Source: a phage. From it: a DNA stretch of 64,000 bases. Shown here one piece after another: positions 2,343 to 18,607 of the stretch. The notes beneath the pieces are model-generated. The model searched no databases and had not been told where the DNA came from. It was given only the letters and a program-made list of their open reading frames with translations. A program made the position numbers and the translations under genes. The number at the start of each line of letters is the position of its first letter. The first letter of the stretch is position 1. The stretch lies in the sequence record PX880103.1. The stretch is one strand, 5' to 3'.

Positions 2343-4322
2343 ATGACTTTATTATCTCCGGGCATTGAGCTCAAAGAAACTACGGTTCAAAGCACCGTGG
2401 TTAATAACTCTACTGGTACAGCAGCTTTGGCCGGTAAATTCCAGTGGGGTCCTGCTTTTCAGATTAAACAGGTTACAAATGAAGTAGATTTAGTTAATAC
2501 TTTTGGTCAACCAACCGCTGAAACTGCTGACTATTTTATGTCTGCGATGAATTTCTTGCAGTACGGAAATGACTTACGAGTAGTTCGTGCTGTTGATAGA
2601 GATACCGCTAAAAACTCATCACCAATCGCCGGTAATATTGAATACACAATTTCTACCCCAGGTAGTAACTATGCGGTTGGAGATAAAATCACGGTCAAAT
2701 ATGTTTCAGATGATATTGAAACTGAAGGTAAAATTACTGAAGTAGACGCAGATGGAAAAATTAAGAAAATTAATATTCCTACTGCAAAAATTATCGCTAA
2801 AGCGAAAGAAGTCGGTGAATATCCAACACTAGGTTCTAACTGGACTGCGGAAATTTCTTCATCTTCCTCTGGTTTAGCTGCAGTAATAACTCTTGGAAAA
2901 ATTATTACTGATTCTGGTATTTTATTAGCTGAAATTGAAAATGCTGAAGCTGCTATGACAGCGGTTGACTTTCAAGCAAATCTTAAAAAATATGGAATTC
3001 CAGGAGTAGTAGCGCTTTATCCAGGAGAATTAGGCGATAAAATTGAAATTGAAATCGTATCTAAAGCTGACTATACAAAAGGAGCTTCTGCATTACTCCC
3101 AATTTATCCAGGTGGTGGTACTCGTGCATCTACTGCCAAGGCAGTGTTTGGGTATGGACCGCAAACTGATTCACAGTACGCTATTATAGTTCGTCGCAAT
3201 GATGCTATTGTTCAAAGCATTGTTCTTTCAACTAAGCGTGGTGAAAAAGATATTTACGATAGTAACATCTATATCGATGACTTTTTCGCAAAAGGTGGCT
3301 CAGAATATATTTTTGCAACTGCACAAAACTGGCCAGAAGGCTTCTCTGGAATTTTAACTCTGTCTGGTGGATTATCATCAAATGCTGAAGTATCAGCAGG
3401 AGATTTGATGGAAGCTTGGGACTTCTTTGCTGACCGTGAATCCGTTGATGTTCAACTGTTTATTGCAGGTTCTTGTGCCGGTGAATCTTTAGAAACAGCA
3501 TCTACTGTCCAAAAACACGTCGTTTCAATTGGGGATGCTCGCCAAGATTGCTTAGTATTGTGCTCTCCTCCACGTGAAACTGTAGTTGGAATTCCTGTAA
3601 CTCGTGCAGTAGATAACTTAGTCAATTGGAGAACCGCAGCAGGTTCATACACTGATAATAACTTTAATATCAGTTCAACCTACGCAGCAATTGATGGTAA
3701 CTACAAGTATCAGTATGACAAATATAATGATGTGAATCGTTGGGTTCCATTAGCAGCTGATATTGCTGGTTTATGCGCAAGAACTGATAACGTTTCTCAT
3801 ACTTGGATGTCTCCAGCTGGTTATAATCGTGGCCAGATTCTTAACGTTATTAAACTTGCTATTGAAACTCGCCAAGCTCAGCGCGACCGTTTATATCAAG
3901 AAGCTATTAACCCGGTAACTGGTACAGGTGGTGATGGTTACGTATTGTATGGTGATAAAACAGCTACTTCTGTTCCTTCTCCATTTGATCGTATTAACGT
4001 TCGTCGTCTGTTTAATATGTTGAAAACGAATATCGGACGTAGTTCAAAATATCGTTTGTTCGAATTAAACAACGCGTTTACTCGTTCATCATTCCGCACA
4101 GAAACTGCCCAGTACTTGCAGGGAATTAAAGCTCTCGGTGGAATTTATGAATATCGTGTAGTTTGCGATACAACAAATAACACTCCGTCAGTAATTGATA
4201 GAAATGAGTTTGTTGCAACATTCTACATCCAACCGGCGCGCAGTATAAATTATATTACTTTGAATTTCGTCGCAACTGCTACCGGCGCAGATTTCGATGA
4301 GTTAACTGGTCTTGCAGGTTAA
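2343..4322 (+). CDS. 18: contractile tail sheath protein gp18
   Basis: 659 aa as in T4 gp18; TATAAATA late promoter upstream; synteny. Confidence 0.95.
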   Translation: MTLLSPGIELKETTVQSTVVNNSTGTAALAGKFQWGPAFQIKQVTNEVDLVNTFGQPTAETADYFMSAMNFLQYGNDLRVVRAVDRDTAKNSSPIAGNIEYTISTPGSNYAVGDKITVKYVSDDIETEGKITEVDADGKIKKINIPTAKIIAKAKEVGEYPTLGSNWTAEISSSSSGLAAVITLGKIITDSGILLAEIENAEAAMTAVDFQANLKKYGIPGVVALYPGELGDKIEIEIVSKADYTKGASALLPIYPGGGTRASTAKAVFGYGPQTDSQYAIIVRRNDAIVQSIVLSTKRGEKDIYDSNIYIDDFFAKGGSEYIFATAQNWPEGFSGILTLSGGLSSNAEVSAGDLMEAWDFFADRESVDVQLFIAGSCAGESLETASTVQKHVVSIGDARQDCLVLCSPPRETVVGIPVTRAVDNLVNWRTAAGSYTDNNFNISSTYAAIDGNYKYQYDKYNDVNRWVPLAADIAGLCARTDNVSHTWMSPAGYNRGQILNVIKLAIETRQAQRDRLYQEAINPVTGTGGDGYVLYGDKTATSVPSPFDRINVRRLFNMLKTNIGRSSKYRLFELNNAFTRSSFRTETAQYLQGIKALGGIYEYRVVCDTTNNTPSVIDRNEFVATFYIQPARSINYITLNFVATATGADFDELTGLAG

Positions 4323-13300: not shown

Positions 13301-15007
13301 TTATGGATAGGTATAGATCATACCAGTTTCTAAAGCAGTTTTGTGAATGATGTATCCATTACGCGATTCTTGGACATCAACTTCTGGATAGTCTTTCATC
13401 ATTTTCTGAAGAGTGTAACGATGCAGGTAGTATTTACTATCTGGATCTTCAGTTTTCCAATCTTTACCTTCTTCAGTCATTTTTTGGATTTCATCCATAA
13501 CCCACCAACCGCACCAGATGTAAGCTGAAGTACGATGTGGAAGAGGATGAACATAAGGTAATTCACCTTCTGGTTCCGGAGCAACTTTATCAGTTACCTG
13601 GACTTGACCTTCTGCTGTAATAGTTTTGCTATCATAGTCAACTGCAGTAACGACGGCAGTCACTTCAATAGTTTGACTTCCAACAGATGAAGTATCAACG
13701 GTATATACATTAGTTGATCCTTCTACTGGAGAAGAATCTTTCTTCCATGAATATTCAATTTGCGCTTCTTCTGGAGCATCAGTGACATTAGCAGTAAATG
13801 TAGCCGAAGCATCTTGTTGAACGTTAATAGAAGGAGGAGTCAATGTAACCTGTGGATTCATTGTCTTCTTATTAACCGTTAATGATACTTCATTAGAAGT
13901 AACTGTTTTTGCGTCATAATCCGTTGCTGTTACTTGGGCTACGCATTTAATTTTTTTAACTCCAACTGCAGTAGGAGTATAGTTAAATGTAGCGGAAGTT
14001 GCTTCACTAATTTGTGAATCATCTACATACCACTGATACGTAGCAGATGCTCCATCAGGTTGAGAAGCTAAAGCGGCGGTAAATTCAACAGCTGTTCCAA
14101 TTACTCCGGCACCAGGATTAGCAGGAGTTACAGCTAGGGTAGTCGTTTGTGTTTTCTTGTTAACAGTCAAAGATACTTCATTCGAAGTAACTTCCTTTTC
14201 ATTGTAATTTTCTGCAGTTACTTGAGCTACGCATTTAATTATTTTTACTCCACTTGTAGTTGGAGTGTAATTGAACGTAGCATTAGTTTCTCCAATAACT
14301 TGAGAACCGTCAACATACCATTTATATGTAGCAGATGCTCCAACGGGTTGAGAAGCTAAGGCAGCAGTAAATTGAACTGGGGTTCCGATTACTCCCGCTG
14401 GAGGACTATCAGGAGTTACTGCCAAAGTAGTTGTCTGCTCCTTTTTATTAACAGTCAGTGATACTTCATTCGAAGTAACGCTTAGTGCATCATAATCTGT
14501 CGCAGTTACTTGAGCCACACACTTAATTCTTTTTACGCCGCTTTCGGCAGGAGTGTAATTGAATGTAGCAGAAGTTGCTTCGCCCACAGGAGAATCATCT
14601 ACATACCATTGATAAGTAGCGTTTGCGCCCGATGGCTGCGAAGCTAAAGCGGCTGTAAATTGAACAGCTGTTCCAATTACTCCAGCGTCAGGGCTATTAG
14701 GAGTTACAGCTAAGGTGGTCGTTTGTGTCTTATTTTGAACTGTGATAGTTGTAGTAGCTTCTGCTGTTTCAGCTTCAGCTTCTGGAACTGTATTTGTTGC
14801 AACTACTTTAATAGTCTTTTGACCGGCAGGCCCCTTTAATACATAATTAAAAGTTGCTTCAGCTCCATCTTGTGGAACATTATCTACGCTCCAAGCATAT
14901 GTAATAGTTCCACCTTCAGTTTGACCACTGGGTGCAGCAGTAAACTGCTTGGTTTCATCAATAACCCCTGTCGGTGTTTTAGGAGTTATATCAACTGTAA
15001 AAGTCAT
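13301..15007 (-). CDS. hoc: Hoc outer capsid decoration protein, expanded to five Ig-like modules
   Basis: 568 aa; N- and C-termini match my recollection of T4 Hoc (376 aa); three ~96-aa near-identical tandem Ig-like repeats plus two diverged ones. Confidence 0.9.
   Translation of the reverse strand: MTFTVDITPKTPTGVIDETKQFTAAPSGQTEGGTITYAWSVDNVPQDGAEATFNYVLKGPAGQKTIKVVATNTVPEAEAETAEATTTITVQNKTQTTTLAVTPNSPDAGVIGTAVQFTAALASQPSGANATYQWYVDDSPVGEATSATFNYTPAESGVKRIKCVAQVTATDYDALSVTSNEVSLTVNKKEQTTTLAVTPDSPPAGVIGTPVQFTAALASQPVGASATYKWYVDGSQVIGETNATFNYTPTTSGVKIIKCVAQVTAENYNEKEVTSNEVSLTVNKKTQTTTLAVTPANPGAGVIGTAVEFTAALASQPDGASATYQWYVDDSQISEATSATFNYTPTAVGVKKIKCVAQVTATDYDAKTVTSNEVSLTVNKKTMNPQVTLTPPSINVQQDASATFTANVTDAPEEAQIEYSWKKDSSPVEGSTNVYTVDTSSVGSQTIEVTAVVTAVDYDSKTITAEGQVQVTDKVAPEPEGELPYVHPLPHRTSAYIWCGWWVMDEIQKMTEEGKDWKTEDPDSKYYLHRYTLQKMMKDYPEVDVQESRNGYIIHKTALETGMIYTYP
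13858..14722. repeat. three diverged tandem ~288-bp repeats encoding Ig-like modules within hoc
   Basis: Protein repeats 2-4 are ~80-90% identical; the DNA copies are clearly related but diverged. Confidence 0.75.
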
Positions 15008-15016
15008 AAGTTATCC

Positions 15017-15697
15017 TTATTTTAATGTTACGAAAGAAGAATTACGTGTTTCACGAATTAGAACTGATCCGTCGCGATTAATGTAATAAATTAAGCTAAA
15101 TAAAGTTTGGTGCGCAGACGCATGTTCAAAACTAGTTGGGTGAGATTTCCAATCTGGAGTTTCAGCAATCCATTGGTAAATCCACCAAGGAACAGTGCAG
15201 AATCCTGGATTTTTTCCAATCAGCTGAAGATTTGGGCTAAAGTTTTCCGGAAGAGTAAATACAGACGGCTTTTCAGATTCAATAATCTCAGCTACAGACT
15301 GCTCGAATTTTTCTTCAACAAAAGAAGTATCTTCAATCAAAACATCGGTATTTTCAGGAATTTTATCCATTTCTACTACTTCAATTTTAATGTCAGATTT
15401 AACCGGAGAATCAATCAGAAGTGCTGCCTCTGGATTGACTTCTTCATCGTCATATTTTAATCCGTCTGCGGCATCAGCAGCATCAATTAAGTCTTTAATA
15501 GATAACCCATCAGTCTCTGGCATAGGTTCACTAGCGAGCTTCTGGAGGGCTTCTTCAATATCATTAACGATATTATCAAAAGATTTATTCTTTTTGACCT
15601 TTATACCAAACTGTTCAGCATATTCAGCTAATTTAGCTTTAGCTTCTTTATTATCATCAAGAGCCTTCAGCTCTGCAATATAATCTTTATCTATCAT
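15017..15697 (-). CDS. inh: Inh, inhibitor of prohead protease
   Basis: 226 aa as in T4 Inh (hoc.1); directly upstream of hoc. Confidence 0.85.
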   Translation of the reverse strand: MIDKDYIAELKALDDNKEAKAKLAEYAEQFGIKVKKNKSFDNIVNDIEEALQKLASEPMPETDGLSIKDLIDAADAADGLKYDDEEVNPEAALLIDSPVKSDIKIEVVEMDKIPENTDVLIEDTSFVEEKFEQSVAEIIESEKPSVFTLPENFSPNLQLIGKNPGFCTVPWWIYQWIAETPDWKSHPTSFEHASAHQTLFSLIYYINRDGSVLIRETRNSSFVTLK

Positions 15698-15710
15698 AAT
15701 ATTTCCTCAG

Positions 15711-15718
15711 TATAAATA
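15711..15718 (+). promoter_or_regulatory. late promoter (TATAAATA) upstream of segE
   Basis: Exact TATAAATA 29 nt upstream of the endonuclease ATG. Confidence 0.5.
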
Positions 15719-15746
15719 TAGATATATTTATTACTCGGAAAATAGT

Positions 15747-16364
15747 ATGTACCACTTTGTATACGAAACAACAAATCTAATAAATGGTAAAAAGTATATA
15801 GGAAAGCACTCTACTGACGACCTGAATGATGGCTACCTTGGTTCCGGTAAGGCAATTCAGCAGGCTATAAAGAAATATGGTGAAAACAATTTCTCTAGAA
15901 AAATACTAAAAGAGTTTAAAACTTCCGAAGAAGCGTACATGTATGAAGAAGAAATTATAACTCCTGAACTAATAAAAAGCAAAAATTATTATAATATGAA
16001 ACCTGGTGGAATTGGTGGAATTGTTATGACTACAGAGGTTATAGCAAAGATGAAAGAATCTTCCGCTAAGAGATTTGAAAACTCACCTGGTACGGTATTA
16101 GGTACAACTTGTTACACTAATGGAACTAAAAATATTTTTATTAAGCCTGGAGAACTTGTTCCAGAAGGATTTGTAAAAGGGATGGTTCATCCTAATAGAA
16201 AGTCCAGAAAAGGATGCAAAGTCAAACCGACTACAACAGGAACTTTTTGGGTCAATAATGGCGCAATAAATAAATTAATACAACCAGACGGTATTATTCC
16301 CGACGGATTTATTAAAGGTCGTCTCATGAAAAGAGATTCTAAAGGCAAATTTAGTAAGGCATAA
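15747..16364 (+). CDS. segE: GIY-YIG homing endonuclease (Seg family)
   Basis: 205 aa; N-terminal GIY-YIG module (YIGKHSTDD...GYLGSGK); free-standing between inh and uvsW, where I recall T4 segE. Confidence 0.75.
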   Translation: MYHFVYETTNLINGKKYIGKHSTDDLNDGYLGSGKAIQQAIKKYGENNFSRKILKEFKTSEEAYMYEEEIITPELIKSKNYYNMKPGGIGGIVMTTEVIAKMKESSAKRFENSPGTVLGTTCYTNGTKNIFIKPGELVPEGFVKGMVHPNRKSRKGCKVKPTTTGTFWVNNGAINKLIQPDGIIPDGFIKGRLMKRDSKGKFSKA

Positions 16365-16366
16365 TT

Positions 16367-17875
16367 ATGGATATTAAAGTACATTTTCACGACTTCAGTC
16401 ATGTACGCATCGATTGTGAAGAGAGCACGTTCCACGAATTAAGAGATTTCTTTTCGTTTGAGGCCGATGGATATAGGTTTAATCCTCGCTTCAGATATGG
16501 CAACTGGGATGGACGAATCCGTCTTTTAGATTATAATCGTCTTCTTCCATTCGGCTTAGTCGGGCAAATTAAAAAGTTCTGTGATAACTTTGGCTATAAA
16601 GCCTGGATTGACCCGCAAATTAACGAAAAAGAAGAATTATCAAGAAAAGATTTTGATGAATGGCTTTCTAAATTAGAAATCTATTCAGGAAATAAAAGAA
16701 TTGAACCACACTGGTATCAAAAAGATGCAGTGTTCGAAGGATTAGTTAATCGTCGTAGAATTCTTAATCTTCCAACATCCGCTGGTAAATCTTTAATTCA
16801 AGCTTTGCTTGCGCGATATTATTTGGAAAATTATGAAGGTAAAATTCTTATCATTGTTCCAACAACTGCTCTGACAACTCAGATGGCTGATGACTTCGTT
16901 GACTATCGTTTATTCAGTCATGCAATGATAAAGAAAATTGGTGGCGGAGCATCAAAAGATGATAAATATAAAAATGATGCACCAGTCGTTGTTGGTACAT
17001 GGCAAACTGTAGTTAAACAACCGAAAGAATGGTTCTCACAGTTTGGAATGATGATGAATGATGAATGCCATCTTGCTACAGGAAAAAGTATTTCATCTAT
17101 CATATCAGGATTAAATAATTGCATGTTTAAATTTGGTTTGTCTGGTTCATTACGTGATGGAAAAGCCAATATCATGCAGTATGTTGGAATGTTTGGTGAA
17201 ATATTTAAGCCAGTAACGACTTCTAAATTAATGGAAGATGGACAAGTAACTGAGCTAAAAATTAATAGTATTTTTCTTCGCTATCCCGATGAGTTCACTA
17301 CTAAATTAAAGGGAAAAACTTACCAAGAAGAAATAAAAATTATTACTGGGCTTAGTAAAAGAAATAAATGGATCGCTAAATTAGCTATTAAGCTTGCGCA
17401 AAAAGATGAAAATGCTTTTGTCATGTTTAAACATGTGTCACATGGTAAAGCTATTTTCGATTTAATTAAAAATGAATACGATAAAGTTTATTACGTATCA
17501 GGGGAAGTTGATACCGAAACCCGCAATATAATGAAAACCTTAGCTGAAAACGGTAAAGGAATAATTATAGTAGCTAGTTATGGTGTATTTTCTACTGGTA
17601 TTTCAGTTAAAAATCTGCATCACGTTGTTTTAGCGCACGGTGTTAAATCAAAAATCATTGTATTACAAACAATCGGTCGTGTATTACGTAAGCATGGTTC
17701 TAAAACAATCGCAACTGTCTGGGACCTCATAGATGATTGCGGCGTTAAGCCAAAATCTGCTAATACGAAAAAGAAATATGTTCATTTGAACTATCTTTTA
17801 AAACACGGCATTGATCGTATTCAGCGCTACGCAGATGAAAAATTTAATTACGTAATGAAAACAGTTAATTTATAA
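16367..17875 (+). CDS. uvsW: UvsW DNA helicase
   Basis: 502 aa; Walker A (PTSAGKS) and DECH box; synteny. Confidence 0.92.
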   Translation: MDIKVHFHDFSHVRIDCEESTFHELRDFFSFEADGYRFNPRFRYGNWDGRIRLLDYNRLLPFGLVGQIKKFCDNFGYKAWIDPQINEKEELSRKDFDEWLSKLEIYSGNKRIEPHWYQKDAVFEGLVNRRRILNLPTSAGKSLIQALLARYYLENYEGKILIIVPTTALTTQMADDFVDYRLFSHAMIKKIGGGASKDDKYKNDAPVVVGTWQTVVKQPKEWFSQFGMMMNDECHLATGKSISSIISGLNNCMFKFGLSGSLRDGKANIMQYVGMFGEIFKPVTTSKLMEDGQVTELKINSIFLRYPDEFTTKLKGKTYQEEIKIITGLSKRNKWIAKLAIKLAQKDENAFVMFKHVSHGKAIFDLIKNEYDKVYYVSGEVDTETRNIMKTLAENGKGIIIVASYGVFSTGISVKNLHHVVLAHGVKSKIIVLQTIGRVLRKHGSKTIATVWDLIDDCGVKPKSANTKKKYVHLNYLLKHGIDRIQRYADEKFNYVMKTVNL

Positions 17876-17888
17876 GGGCTTCGGCCCT

Positions 17889-18131
17889 TTGGAGAAAAAG
17901 ATGTTACTAGAATTTAAACAATTTCTTTATGAAGCTTCTATTGATGAATTTATGGGTAAAATTGCCTCTTGTCAAACATTAGAAGGTTTAGAAGAACTTG
18001 AAGCTTATTATAAGAAAAGAGTCAAAGAAACTGAATTAAAAGATACTGATGACATCTCAGTCAGAGATGCTTTGGCAGGAAAAAGAGCTGAATTAGAAGA
18101 TTCAGACGATGAAGTAGAAGAAAGCTTTTAA
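17889..18131 (+). CDS. uvsW.1: UvsW.1 small helical protein
   Basis: 80-aa ORF just after uvsW, separated by a GGGCTTCGGCCC hairpin, own RBS GGAGAAAAAG. Confidence 0.75.
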   Translation: MEKKMLLEFKQFLYEASIDEFMGKIASCQTLEGLEELEAYYKKRVKETELKDTDDISVRDALAGKRAELEDSDDEVEESF

Positions 18132-18186
18132 ATTAAAAAAGGCCCAACCAAAAAGGAAGGGCCAAAACTATAGACTAAAGGTCACA

Positions 18187-18354
18187 CTATAGCAAAAGTT
18201 GTGTTTCATTTAATTGTTCTTCCGAACTTTCTGAAACTGGTAGTTCTTTAATGTAATTATAGCAAGGCCCAGGATGTACAGGACCTTTGTCTGTTTCAAC
18301 AACCAATGCAGAATCGATTGGAGTTTTACAGACAACACAAATCTTATCTGACAT
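18187..18354 (-). CDS. small hypothetical protein (55 aa), absent from the ORF track
   Basis: ATG preceded by GAGGAG at 6-nt spacing; MSDKICVVCKTPIDSALVVETDKGPVHPGPCYNYIKELPVSESSEEQLNETQLLL; fills the gap downstream of the 74-aa ORF. Confidence 0.55.
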   Translation of the reverse strand: MSDKICVVCKTPIDSALVVETDKGPVHPGPCYNYIKELPVSESSEEQLNETQLLL

Positions 18355-18382
18355 GATTGTCTCCTCTGAATTATATATCTAT

Positions 18383-18607
18383 TTATACAACTCTCATATG
18401 CATATCAATGCCCATATCTTTAGAATAAAAATATTCATCAAGATATCCGGCAAATTTTCCTTTAATATAAAGGACATCTTCACCACACGGGTGGTCGGCC
18501 AGGATACGAATATCCTGACGCTTAAGATTATACTTTTTCATTAAGAATTGAATTTCTGTTTCAAATTCTTCTTCATAATTAAAAGCATCATCAATGCTAT
18601 ATCTCAT
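18383..18607 (-). CDS. hypothetical small protein (uvsY-adjacent ORF)
   Basis: 74-aa ORF directly downstream of uvsY. Confidence 0.6.
   Translation of the reverse strand: MRYSIDDAFNYEEEFETEIQFLMKKYNLKRQDIRILADHPCGEDVLYIKGKFAGYLDEYFYSKDMGIDMHMRVV

Follow-up and report, generated by a model that had tools for sequence, protein, structure and literature searches.

The window analysed here, a stretch of 64,000 nucleotides from phage sequence record PX880103.1, contains an open reading frame (ORF) at 15747..16364 on the plus strand that begins with ATG and encodes 205 amino acids plus a stop codon. To its left lies inh (hoc.1), the prohead protease inhibitor gene, encoding 226 amino acids at 15017..15697 on the minus strand, with position 15698 as the first intergenic base beyond it. 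To its right, the uvsW helicase gene (16367..17875, plus strand, 502 amino acids) starts 2 nt past the stop codon. The right neighbour was identified as UvsW by Pfam (UvsW_N, E 8e-44; ResIII; DEAD; Helicase_C), and inh occupies the same relative position in the T4T annotation. The gene order hoc, inh, segE, uvsW, uvsW.1 is annotated at equivalent positions in T4T and likewise in the T4 reference, and the 205-amino-acid ORF is referred to below as segE. The 49-nt region between inh and segE consists of a part common to genomes with and without segE (15698..15734) and a segE-specific 12-nt leader, TCGGAAAATAGT (15735..15746), which carries a weak GGA Shine-Dalgarno sequence and forms the left edge of the mobile block. 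An AAGG sequence at 16356..16359, within the last segE codons and 7 nt before the uvsW ATG, is the putative Shine-Dalgarno sequence of uvsW. The 5' block of uvsW inherited together with segE covers 16367..16502, with a core at 16367-16456 and variable ends up to 16502.

When the 2-kb segment 15000-17000 was used as query, 656 phage records were matched, almost all of them Tequatrovirus and relatives. The closest match was Shigella phage ESh16 (98.9%), and T4 matched at 97.8%; the host phage is a Tequatrovirus that stands close to ESh16 and is not T4 itself. A T4-type hoc-inh-segE-uvsW locus at 98.5% was also found in MG010123.1, a 32-kb record named 'Staphylococcus phage SAJK-IND', which is probably mislabelled or contaminated.

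Further features were observed on both sides of the locus. The hoc gene (13301-15007, minus strand) encodes 568 amino acids compared to 376 in T4, and hoc of ESh16 is equally long. Its product is a PKD/Ig-repeat protein by Pfam and contains extra near-identical PKD/Ig-like repeats in the window, the motif TTTLAVTP..AGVIGT.V.FTAALASQP.GA.ATY.WYVD being present three times. On the other side, uvsW.1 begins 13 nt past uvsW in the window (17875-17889) with no endonuclease gene in between. In PYPS2T and HY03 (3873-4001), a second homing endonuclease gene of 693 nt, beginning 4 nt before the end of uvsW, lies between uvsW and uvsW.1, so that uvsW has an independent endonuclease insertion site on each side. 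In the T4 reference NC_000866.4 (3178-4941), uvsW and uvsW.1 are annotated as one fused coding sequence of 1764 nt with sequence discrepancies flagged; uvsW (502 amino acids) and uvsW.1 are separate ORFs in the window, in T4T and in other genomes.

Identity and predicted structure of SegE

The segE product of the window was found to be identical to T4T SegE at 202 of 205 residues (99%) in a gap-free alignment, the substitutions being K52T, E97D and T120K. T4 SegE (NP_049795 / ADJ39903) likewise has 205 amino acids, the same flanking genes and spacing, and an upstream late-promoter box, and is distinguished from the protein of the window by the same three substitutions. The Pfam model PF19835 (SegE_GIY-YIG) was matched at 36.6 bits, the cut-off being 25, and the general GIY-YIG model PF01541 scored 20.2 bits, slightly under its cut-off of 22.6. 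A match to PHROG 314, 'homing endonuclease', was obtained at E 2e-43.

An AlphaFold model of SegE (pLDDT 84.6) confirmed the predicted GIY-YIG alpha/beta fold, a three-stranded sheet with flanking helices, and a fold search with this model returned I-TevI as the nearest structural relative. No meaningful match was found when PDB chains were searched with the single SegE sequence or with a 56-sequence profile, and no sequence match between I-TevI and SegE was detectable at the HMM level; the link between the two proteins therefore comes from fold comparison only. These results bear out the initial annotation, which had described a 205-amino-acid ORF with a GIY-YIG N-terminal module on the strand opposite to inh and had named T4 SegE as the occupant of this site; the strands of the two genes, the alignment and the synteny with T4T and T4 all agree with it.

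In the AlphaFold model, residues 1 to approximately 91 form the GIY-YIG nuclease domain and residues 96-112 a linker helix. 'FVY' with Y6 and 'YIG' with Y17-G19 were invariant in 56 homologs; a catalytic-type glutamate, E67, was present in 54 of the 56, and N83 in all of them. Judged from residue order and spacing, Y6, Y17, E67 and N83 of SegE would correspond to Y6, Y17, E75 and N90 of I-TevI. GIY-YIG nucleases have a conserved catalytic arginine, R27 in I-TevI and R39 in UvrC. In contrast to I-TevI, the SegE subfamily lacks an invariant arginine that could correspond to R27: none was seen in the N-terminal domain when the 56 sequences were aligned. Invariant there are D28, Y30, G32, S33, G34 and K43, and in the model residues 24-34 form a loop with the conserved pattern D28-x-Y30-x-G-S-G. 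This loop and K43, in place of an invariant arginine, probably explain why Pfam has a model of its own for the SegE type.

The C-terminal half of the model contains beta-hairpins at 121-132 and 167-178. Each falls on one copy of a duplicated motif (CYTNGTKNIFIKPGELVPEGFVKG and FWVNNGAINKLIQPDGIIPDGFIKGR), and the beta-hairpin motif as a whole spans 121-144 and 167-192; G165, W168, G172, G191 and R192 were invariant or nearly so in the homolog alignment. When the last 110 amino acids were scanned against Pfam at E values up to 10, nothing was matched, so that the presumed DNA-binding region of SegE is one without a named domain. By analogy with other GIY-YIG homing enzymes, the C-terminal repeats are presumed to bind DNA. 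Unlike I-TevI, SegE has in this region two beta-hairpin repeats and no zinc finger or helix-turn-helix recognisable by Pfam.

Distribution of segE and boundaries of the mobile block

A record was scored as carrying segE when it covered at least 80% of the 2-kb query, and 159 of the 656 locus-matching records did so. The uninterrupted inh-uvsW junction was sought with a 138-nt probe spanning this junction in phage wV7, and 527 records covered at least 80% of it, most of them at 99% identity or more. These include T2, RB51, ime09, HP3, Mosigvirus, and Enterobacter and Kosakonia phages; genomes with segE match only the first 55 nt of the probe. The counts of 159 and 527 records indicate that segE is carried by roughly a quarter of sequenced relatives. 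With the query 15698-16366, 169 records contained the complete gene and approximately 350 matched only 15698-15734, the latter at 100% identity. In MK327937.1 (vB_EcoM_G10400, 1322-1443), 177 extra nt are present between inh and segE. A second insertion was ruled out as their source, since Nextera/Illumina adapter sequence (CTGTCTCTTATACACATCT...ATCTCGTATGCCGTCTTCTGCTTG), poly-A and duplicated flank identify them as an artefact of assembly in the deposited sequence.

Flanking sequences were compared between nine genomes with segE (the window, T4T, fPS-2, G10400, ESh16, PYPS2T, Kha5h, HY03 and slur07) and six Tequatrovirus genomes without it (wV7, CJY920, T2, HP3, RB51 and Pu-Krd-SF3). The segE ORF was intact with 205 amino acids in all nine, at 97.4-99.2% nucleotide identity, with at most three amino-acid changes and mostly synonymous variation. 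On the left, the window and T4T are identical to wV7 and to the Mosigvirus SA35RD up to 15734 (...TATAAATATAGATATATTTATTAC). There follows a 12-nt leader that differs between the two types of genome, and then segE; homology with the empty-site genomes resumes at ATTAAAGTACATTTT, codons 3-7 of uvsW. Among the 15 genomes no fixed difference between the two classes was found in inh or the intergenic region before 15735, all left-side fixed differences fell at 15735-15746, and polymorphisms of the left flank were shuffled freely between the classes.

On the right, 27 fixed differences separated the nine genomes from the six at 16366-16456. They comprised 24 substitutions and a one-codon indel, a deletion in the genomes with segE, were nearly all synonymous, and lay at the start of uvsW and within the first approximately 90 nt of the gene. 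Linkage to segE was broken at varying points between 16459 and 16502. Kha5h, which carries segE, becomes empty-like at 16462-16471; CJY920 and Pu-Krd-SF3, which lack it, become segE-like from approximately 16471 and 16494, respectively; and wV7, T2 and RB51, which also lack it, switch beyond 16502. When uvsW of the window was compared with that of wV7, identity was 72-80% over the first 120 nt, rose to 90% in the 60 nt that follow, and reached 98-100% in most of the remainder. Of the first 46 codons 26 differed, 21 of them synonymously, and of the remaining 442 codons another 26 differed, all synonymously. Database-wide, identity to the uvsW 5' block was bimodal: 158 records reached at least 95%, 778 stayed below 90%, and the range of 90-95% was empty; the 158 records with a block of the segE type are approximately as many as the records with segE.

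This footprint, read from the alignments, is the pattern expected of homing with co-conversion. The diverged uvsW 5' block is probably a version of the homing site that would resist cleavage, together with a co-conversion tract. Mosigvirus, Gelderlandvirus and MHG19 were considered as donors of the block and rejected, as they were no closer to it than to the empty-site allele; no database record at 90-95% identity was found that could represent a donor.

Homologs of SegE were found at the same inh/uvsW site and in the same orientation in Salmonella phage CGG4-1 (Gelderlandvirus; 2499-3128), with approximately 65% amino acid identity, and in Yersinia phage MHG19 (2538-3188), with 40%. Both genes have TATAAATA upstream and abut or overlap the start of uvsW, as segE of the window abuts it; the ORF of MHG19 overlaps by 10 nt. 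The two homologs have diverged as much as their flanking genes, which points to a long stay in the niche or to repeated invasions rather than to a recent transfer from segE of Tequatrovirus. The presence of diverged homologs at one site in other genera indicates that the inh/uvsW junction has long served this endonuclease lineage as a niche.

Late promoters and alternative readings of the locus

The shared intergenic part contains an exact T4-type late promoter box, TATAAATA, at 15711-15718 on the plus strand. The box and the segE ATG are separated by 28 nt, the ATG beginning at the 29th base, in agreement with the initial annotation, which had placed an exact box 29 nt upstream. In the whole window TATAAATA occurs 19 times compared to 8.5 +/- 2.8 in shuffled sequences, and none of 100 shuffles reached 19; the motif is thus enriched, as a T4-type genome would be expected to show. 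On the minus strand, AATAAATA (15732-15725) matches the late consensus at 7 of 8 positions, 27 nt before the inh ATG, and is a probable divergent late promoter for inh. The two boxes stand back to back in what looks like a divergent pair within the intergenic region; a late promoter upstream of inh is mentioned in PMC2988022.

No exact TATAAATA was found inside segE, only boxes with one mismatch at 15866, 16127 and 16265, and its interior contained no sigma-70-like site on the plus strand and no MotA-box/GCTT motif. Between segE and uvsW there was no terminator-like site, exact late box or MotA-type promoter. Most simply, segE and uvsW would share one bicistronic late message. PMC2988022 states that segE itself contains a promoter for the gene downstream of it.

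The initial annotation had also regarded the late promoter as segE's own, and segE could accordingly be a self-contained cassette with the TATAAATA box as part of the mobile element. The distance of 28 nt from box to ATG agrees with such a reading, as do the distant homologs in CGG4-1 and MHG19, which likewise stand behind TATAAATA, and segE is grouped under 'endonuclease-specific' promoters in the upstream non-coding region (PMC2988022). A promoter brought in by the element would be expected only where the endonuclease gene is present, but the box was found in genomes without it. The 37 nt at 15698-15734 that include it are identical in the approximately 350 segE-less records, where they lie directly upstream of uvsW. 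In empty-site genomes including wV7, whose uvsW ATG lies 50 nt after inh, and SA35RD, the box stands approximately 30 nt upstream of uvsW, and the depositors of SA35RD, in which it lies 29 nt before uvsW, annotated it as a late promoter of the T4 type. In addition, the first fixed difference on the left, at 15735, is downstream of the box, and late-promoter expression of UvsW is established (PMC3016281). The presence of the box in empty-site genomes effectively refutes the cassette reading, which is very unlikely. These findings show that the box is the resident uvsW late promoter, used by segE, and that segE was inserted downstream of it and upstream of uvsW without bringing a promoter along.

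Two further readings concern mobility. Patchy distribution alone cannot tell gain from loss, and segE might be a domesticated or decaying remnant, immobile and repeatedly deleted. This is hardly credible, however, for an ORF that is intact in nine of nine genomes with mostly synonymous variation; loss of segE by mere deletion would leave the 27 fixed differences at the 5' end of uvsW in place, the breakpoints next to the insert vary between genomes, and the T4 protein with 99% identity is described as homing at almost 100% in PMC2330249. It is still less plausible that the ORF is an intron-encoded endonuclease, although three records (MK327937, MK327944 and MK327946) label it 'group I intron endonuclease' and its nearest structural relative, I-TevI, is intron-encoded. 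The ORF lies between complete inh and uvsW ORFs, with uvsW contiguous and no intron or intein embedding, and T4 SegE is classed as free-standing (PMC2988022). An Rfam scan of 14800-18400 at E values up to 1 returned no group I or group II intron or other significant RNA family, the sole return being a sub-threshold chance match to U7; the intron-encoded reading can practically be discarded. The mobile insertion proposed in the initial annotation is supported by the 527 conserved junctions from which segE is absent, compared to 159 records with the gene, and by the uvsW haplotype linked to segE.

Proposed homing of segE and its meaning for T4-like phages

Taken together, the ORF is almost certainly segE, a T4-type free-standing GIY-YIG homing endonuclease gene acting by homing with co-conversion. 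It is an already known gene at its known site and an ordinary feature there. Endonuclease activity, target location and near-100% homing are attributed to the protein of the window by analogy with the 99%-identical T4 SegE described in the literature. Edgell, Gibb and Belfort (2010; PMC2988022, Table 1) listed segE as free-standing, active, of the GIY-YIG family, inserted between inh and uvsW, and with uvsW as target gene. Brok-Volchanskaya et al. (PMC2330249) placed the SegE cleavage site in RB30 and RB52, both without segE, and reported that in mixed infections of T4 and RB30 the SegE-driven homing of segE was almost 100% efficient, depended on segE integrity and DNA homology, and co-converted the flanks. 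Site-specific double-strand cleavage of the empty allele by T4 SegE and preferential inheritance in mixed infection, against RB30 and RB52, are attributed to Kadyrov et al. (1997) in PMC2988022 and PMC2330249. These sources accord with the statement in the initial annotation that T4 SegE cuts the uvsW region of relatives lacking the gene, and the footprint described above agrees with the published crosses of T4 and RB30.

In the mechanism proposed here, transcription from TATAAATA at 15711 would produce a segE-uvsW message late in infection. SegE, with its N-terminal GIY-YIG nuclease domain and presumed C-terminal DNA-binding region, would recognise the uninterrupted inh-uvsW junction of a co-infecting segE-less relative and introduce a double-strand break around the start of uvsW. 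Repair of the break by the phage recombination machinery, with the segE-carrying genome as template and inh and uvsW as left and right homology arms, would copy segE and a variable length of flank into the recipient, that is, homing with co-conversion. The segE-carrying genome itself would be protected by the splitting of the site by the insert and by the changes in the first approximately 90 nt of uvsW, with 24 fixed substitutions and a one-codon deletion.

I-TevI, in contrast to the free-standing SegE, is encoded in an intron, that of T4 td (PDB 1LN0, 1MK0), and represses transcription at its own late promoter. By analogy, the retained segment 15698-15734, the unchanged left half of the former homing site, might serve as an operator at which SegE would repress its own late transcription and that of uvsW. 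Wedged between the uvsW promoter and uvsW, segE would also supply the uvsW ribosome-binding site and start codon, so that UvsW would depend on read-through from segE and the element would be hard to lose. We regard this extended proposal as rather unlikely. SegA, SegB, SegC, SegF and SegG belong to the same class as SegE and have different insertion sites and targets. The Seg endonucleases cut the allele of a relative near the insertion site and spread by recombinational repair with co-conversion of the flanks (PMC2988022, PMC2330249). In contrast to segC, segF and segG, which are promoter-less cassettes inside existing operons (PMC2988022), segE lies between a resident promoter and the gene that this promoter drives.

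The segE gene is a textbook T4 free-standing homing endonuclease gene whose site, target and homing were published in the 1990s, and the relevance of the present findings is small beyond correct annotation. Three points are added here. A database-scale count shows that roughly a quarter of sequenced T4-like coliphages carry segE, the block travelling with it is delimited from 15735 to approximately 16456-16502, and the late promoter in front of segE turns out to be the pre-existing one of uvsW, outside the mobile element. In comparisons of T-even genomes, the sharp jump in divergence within the first approximately 100 nt of uvsW is to be read as a footprint of homing and not as unusual selection on the helicase.
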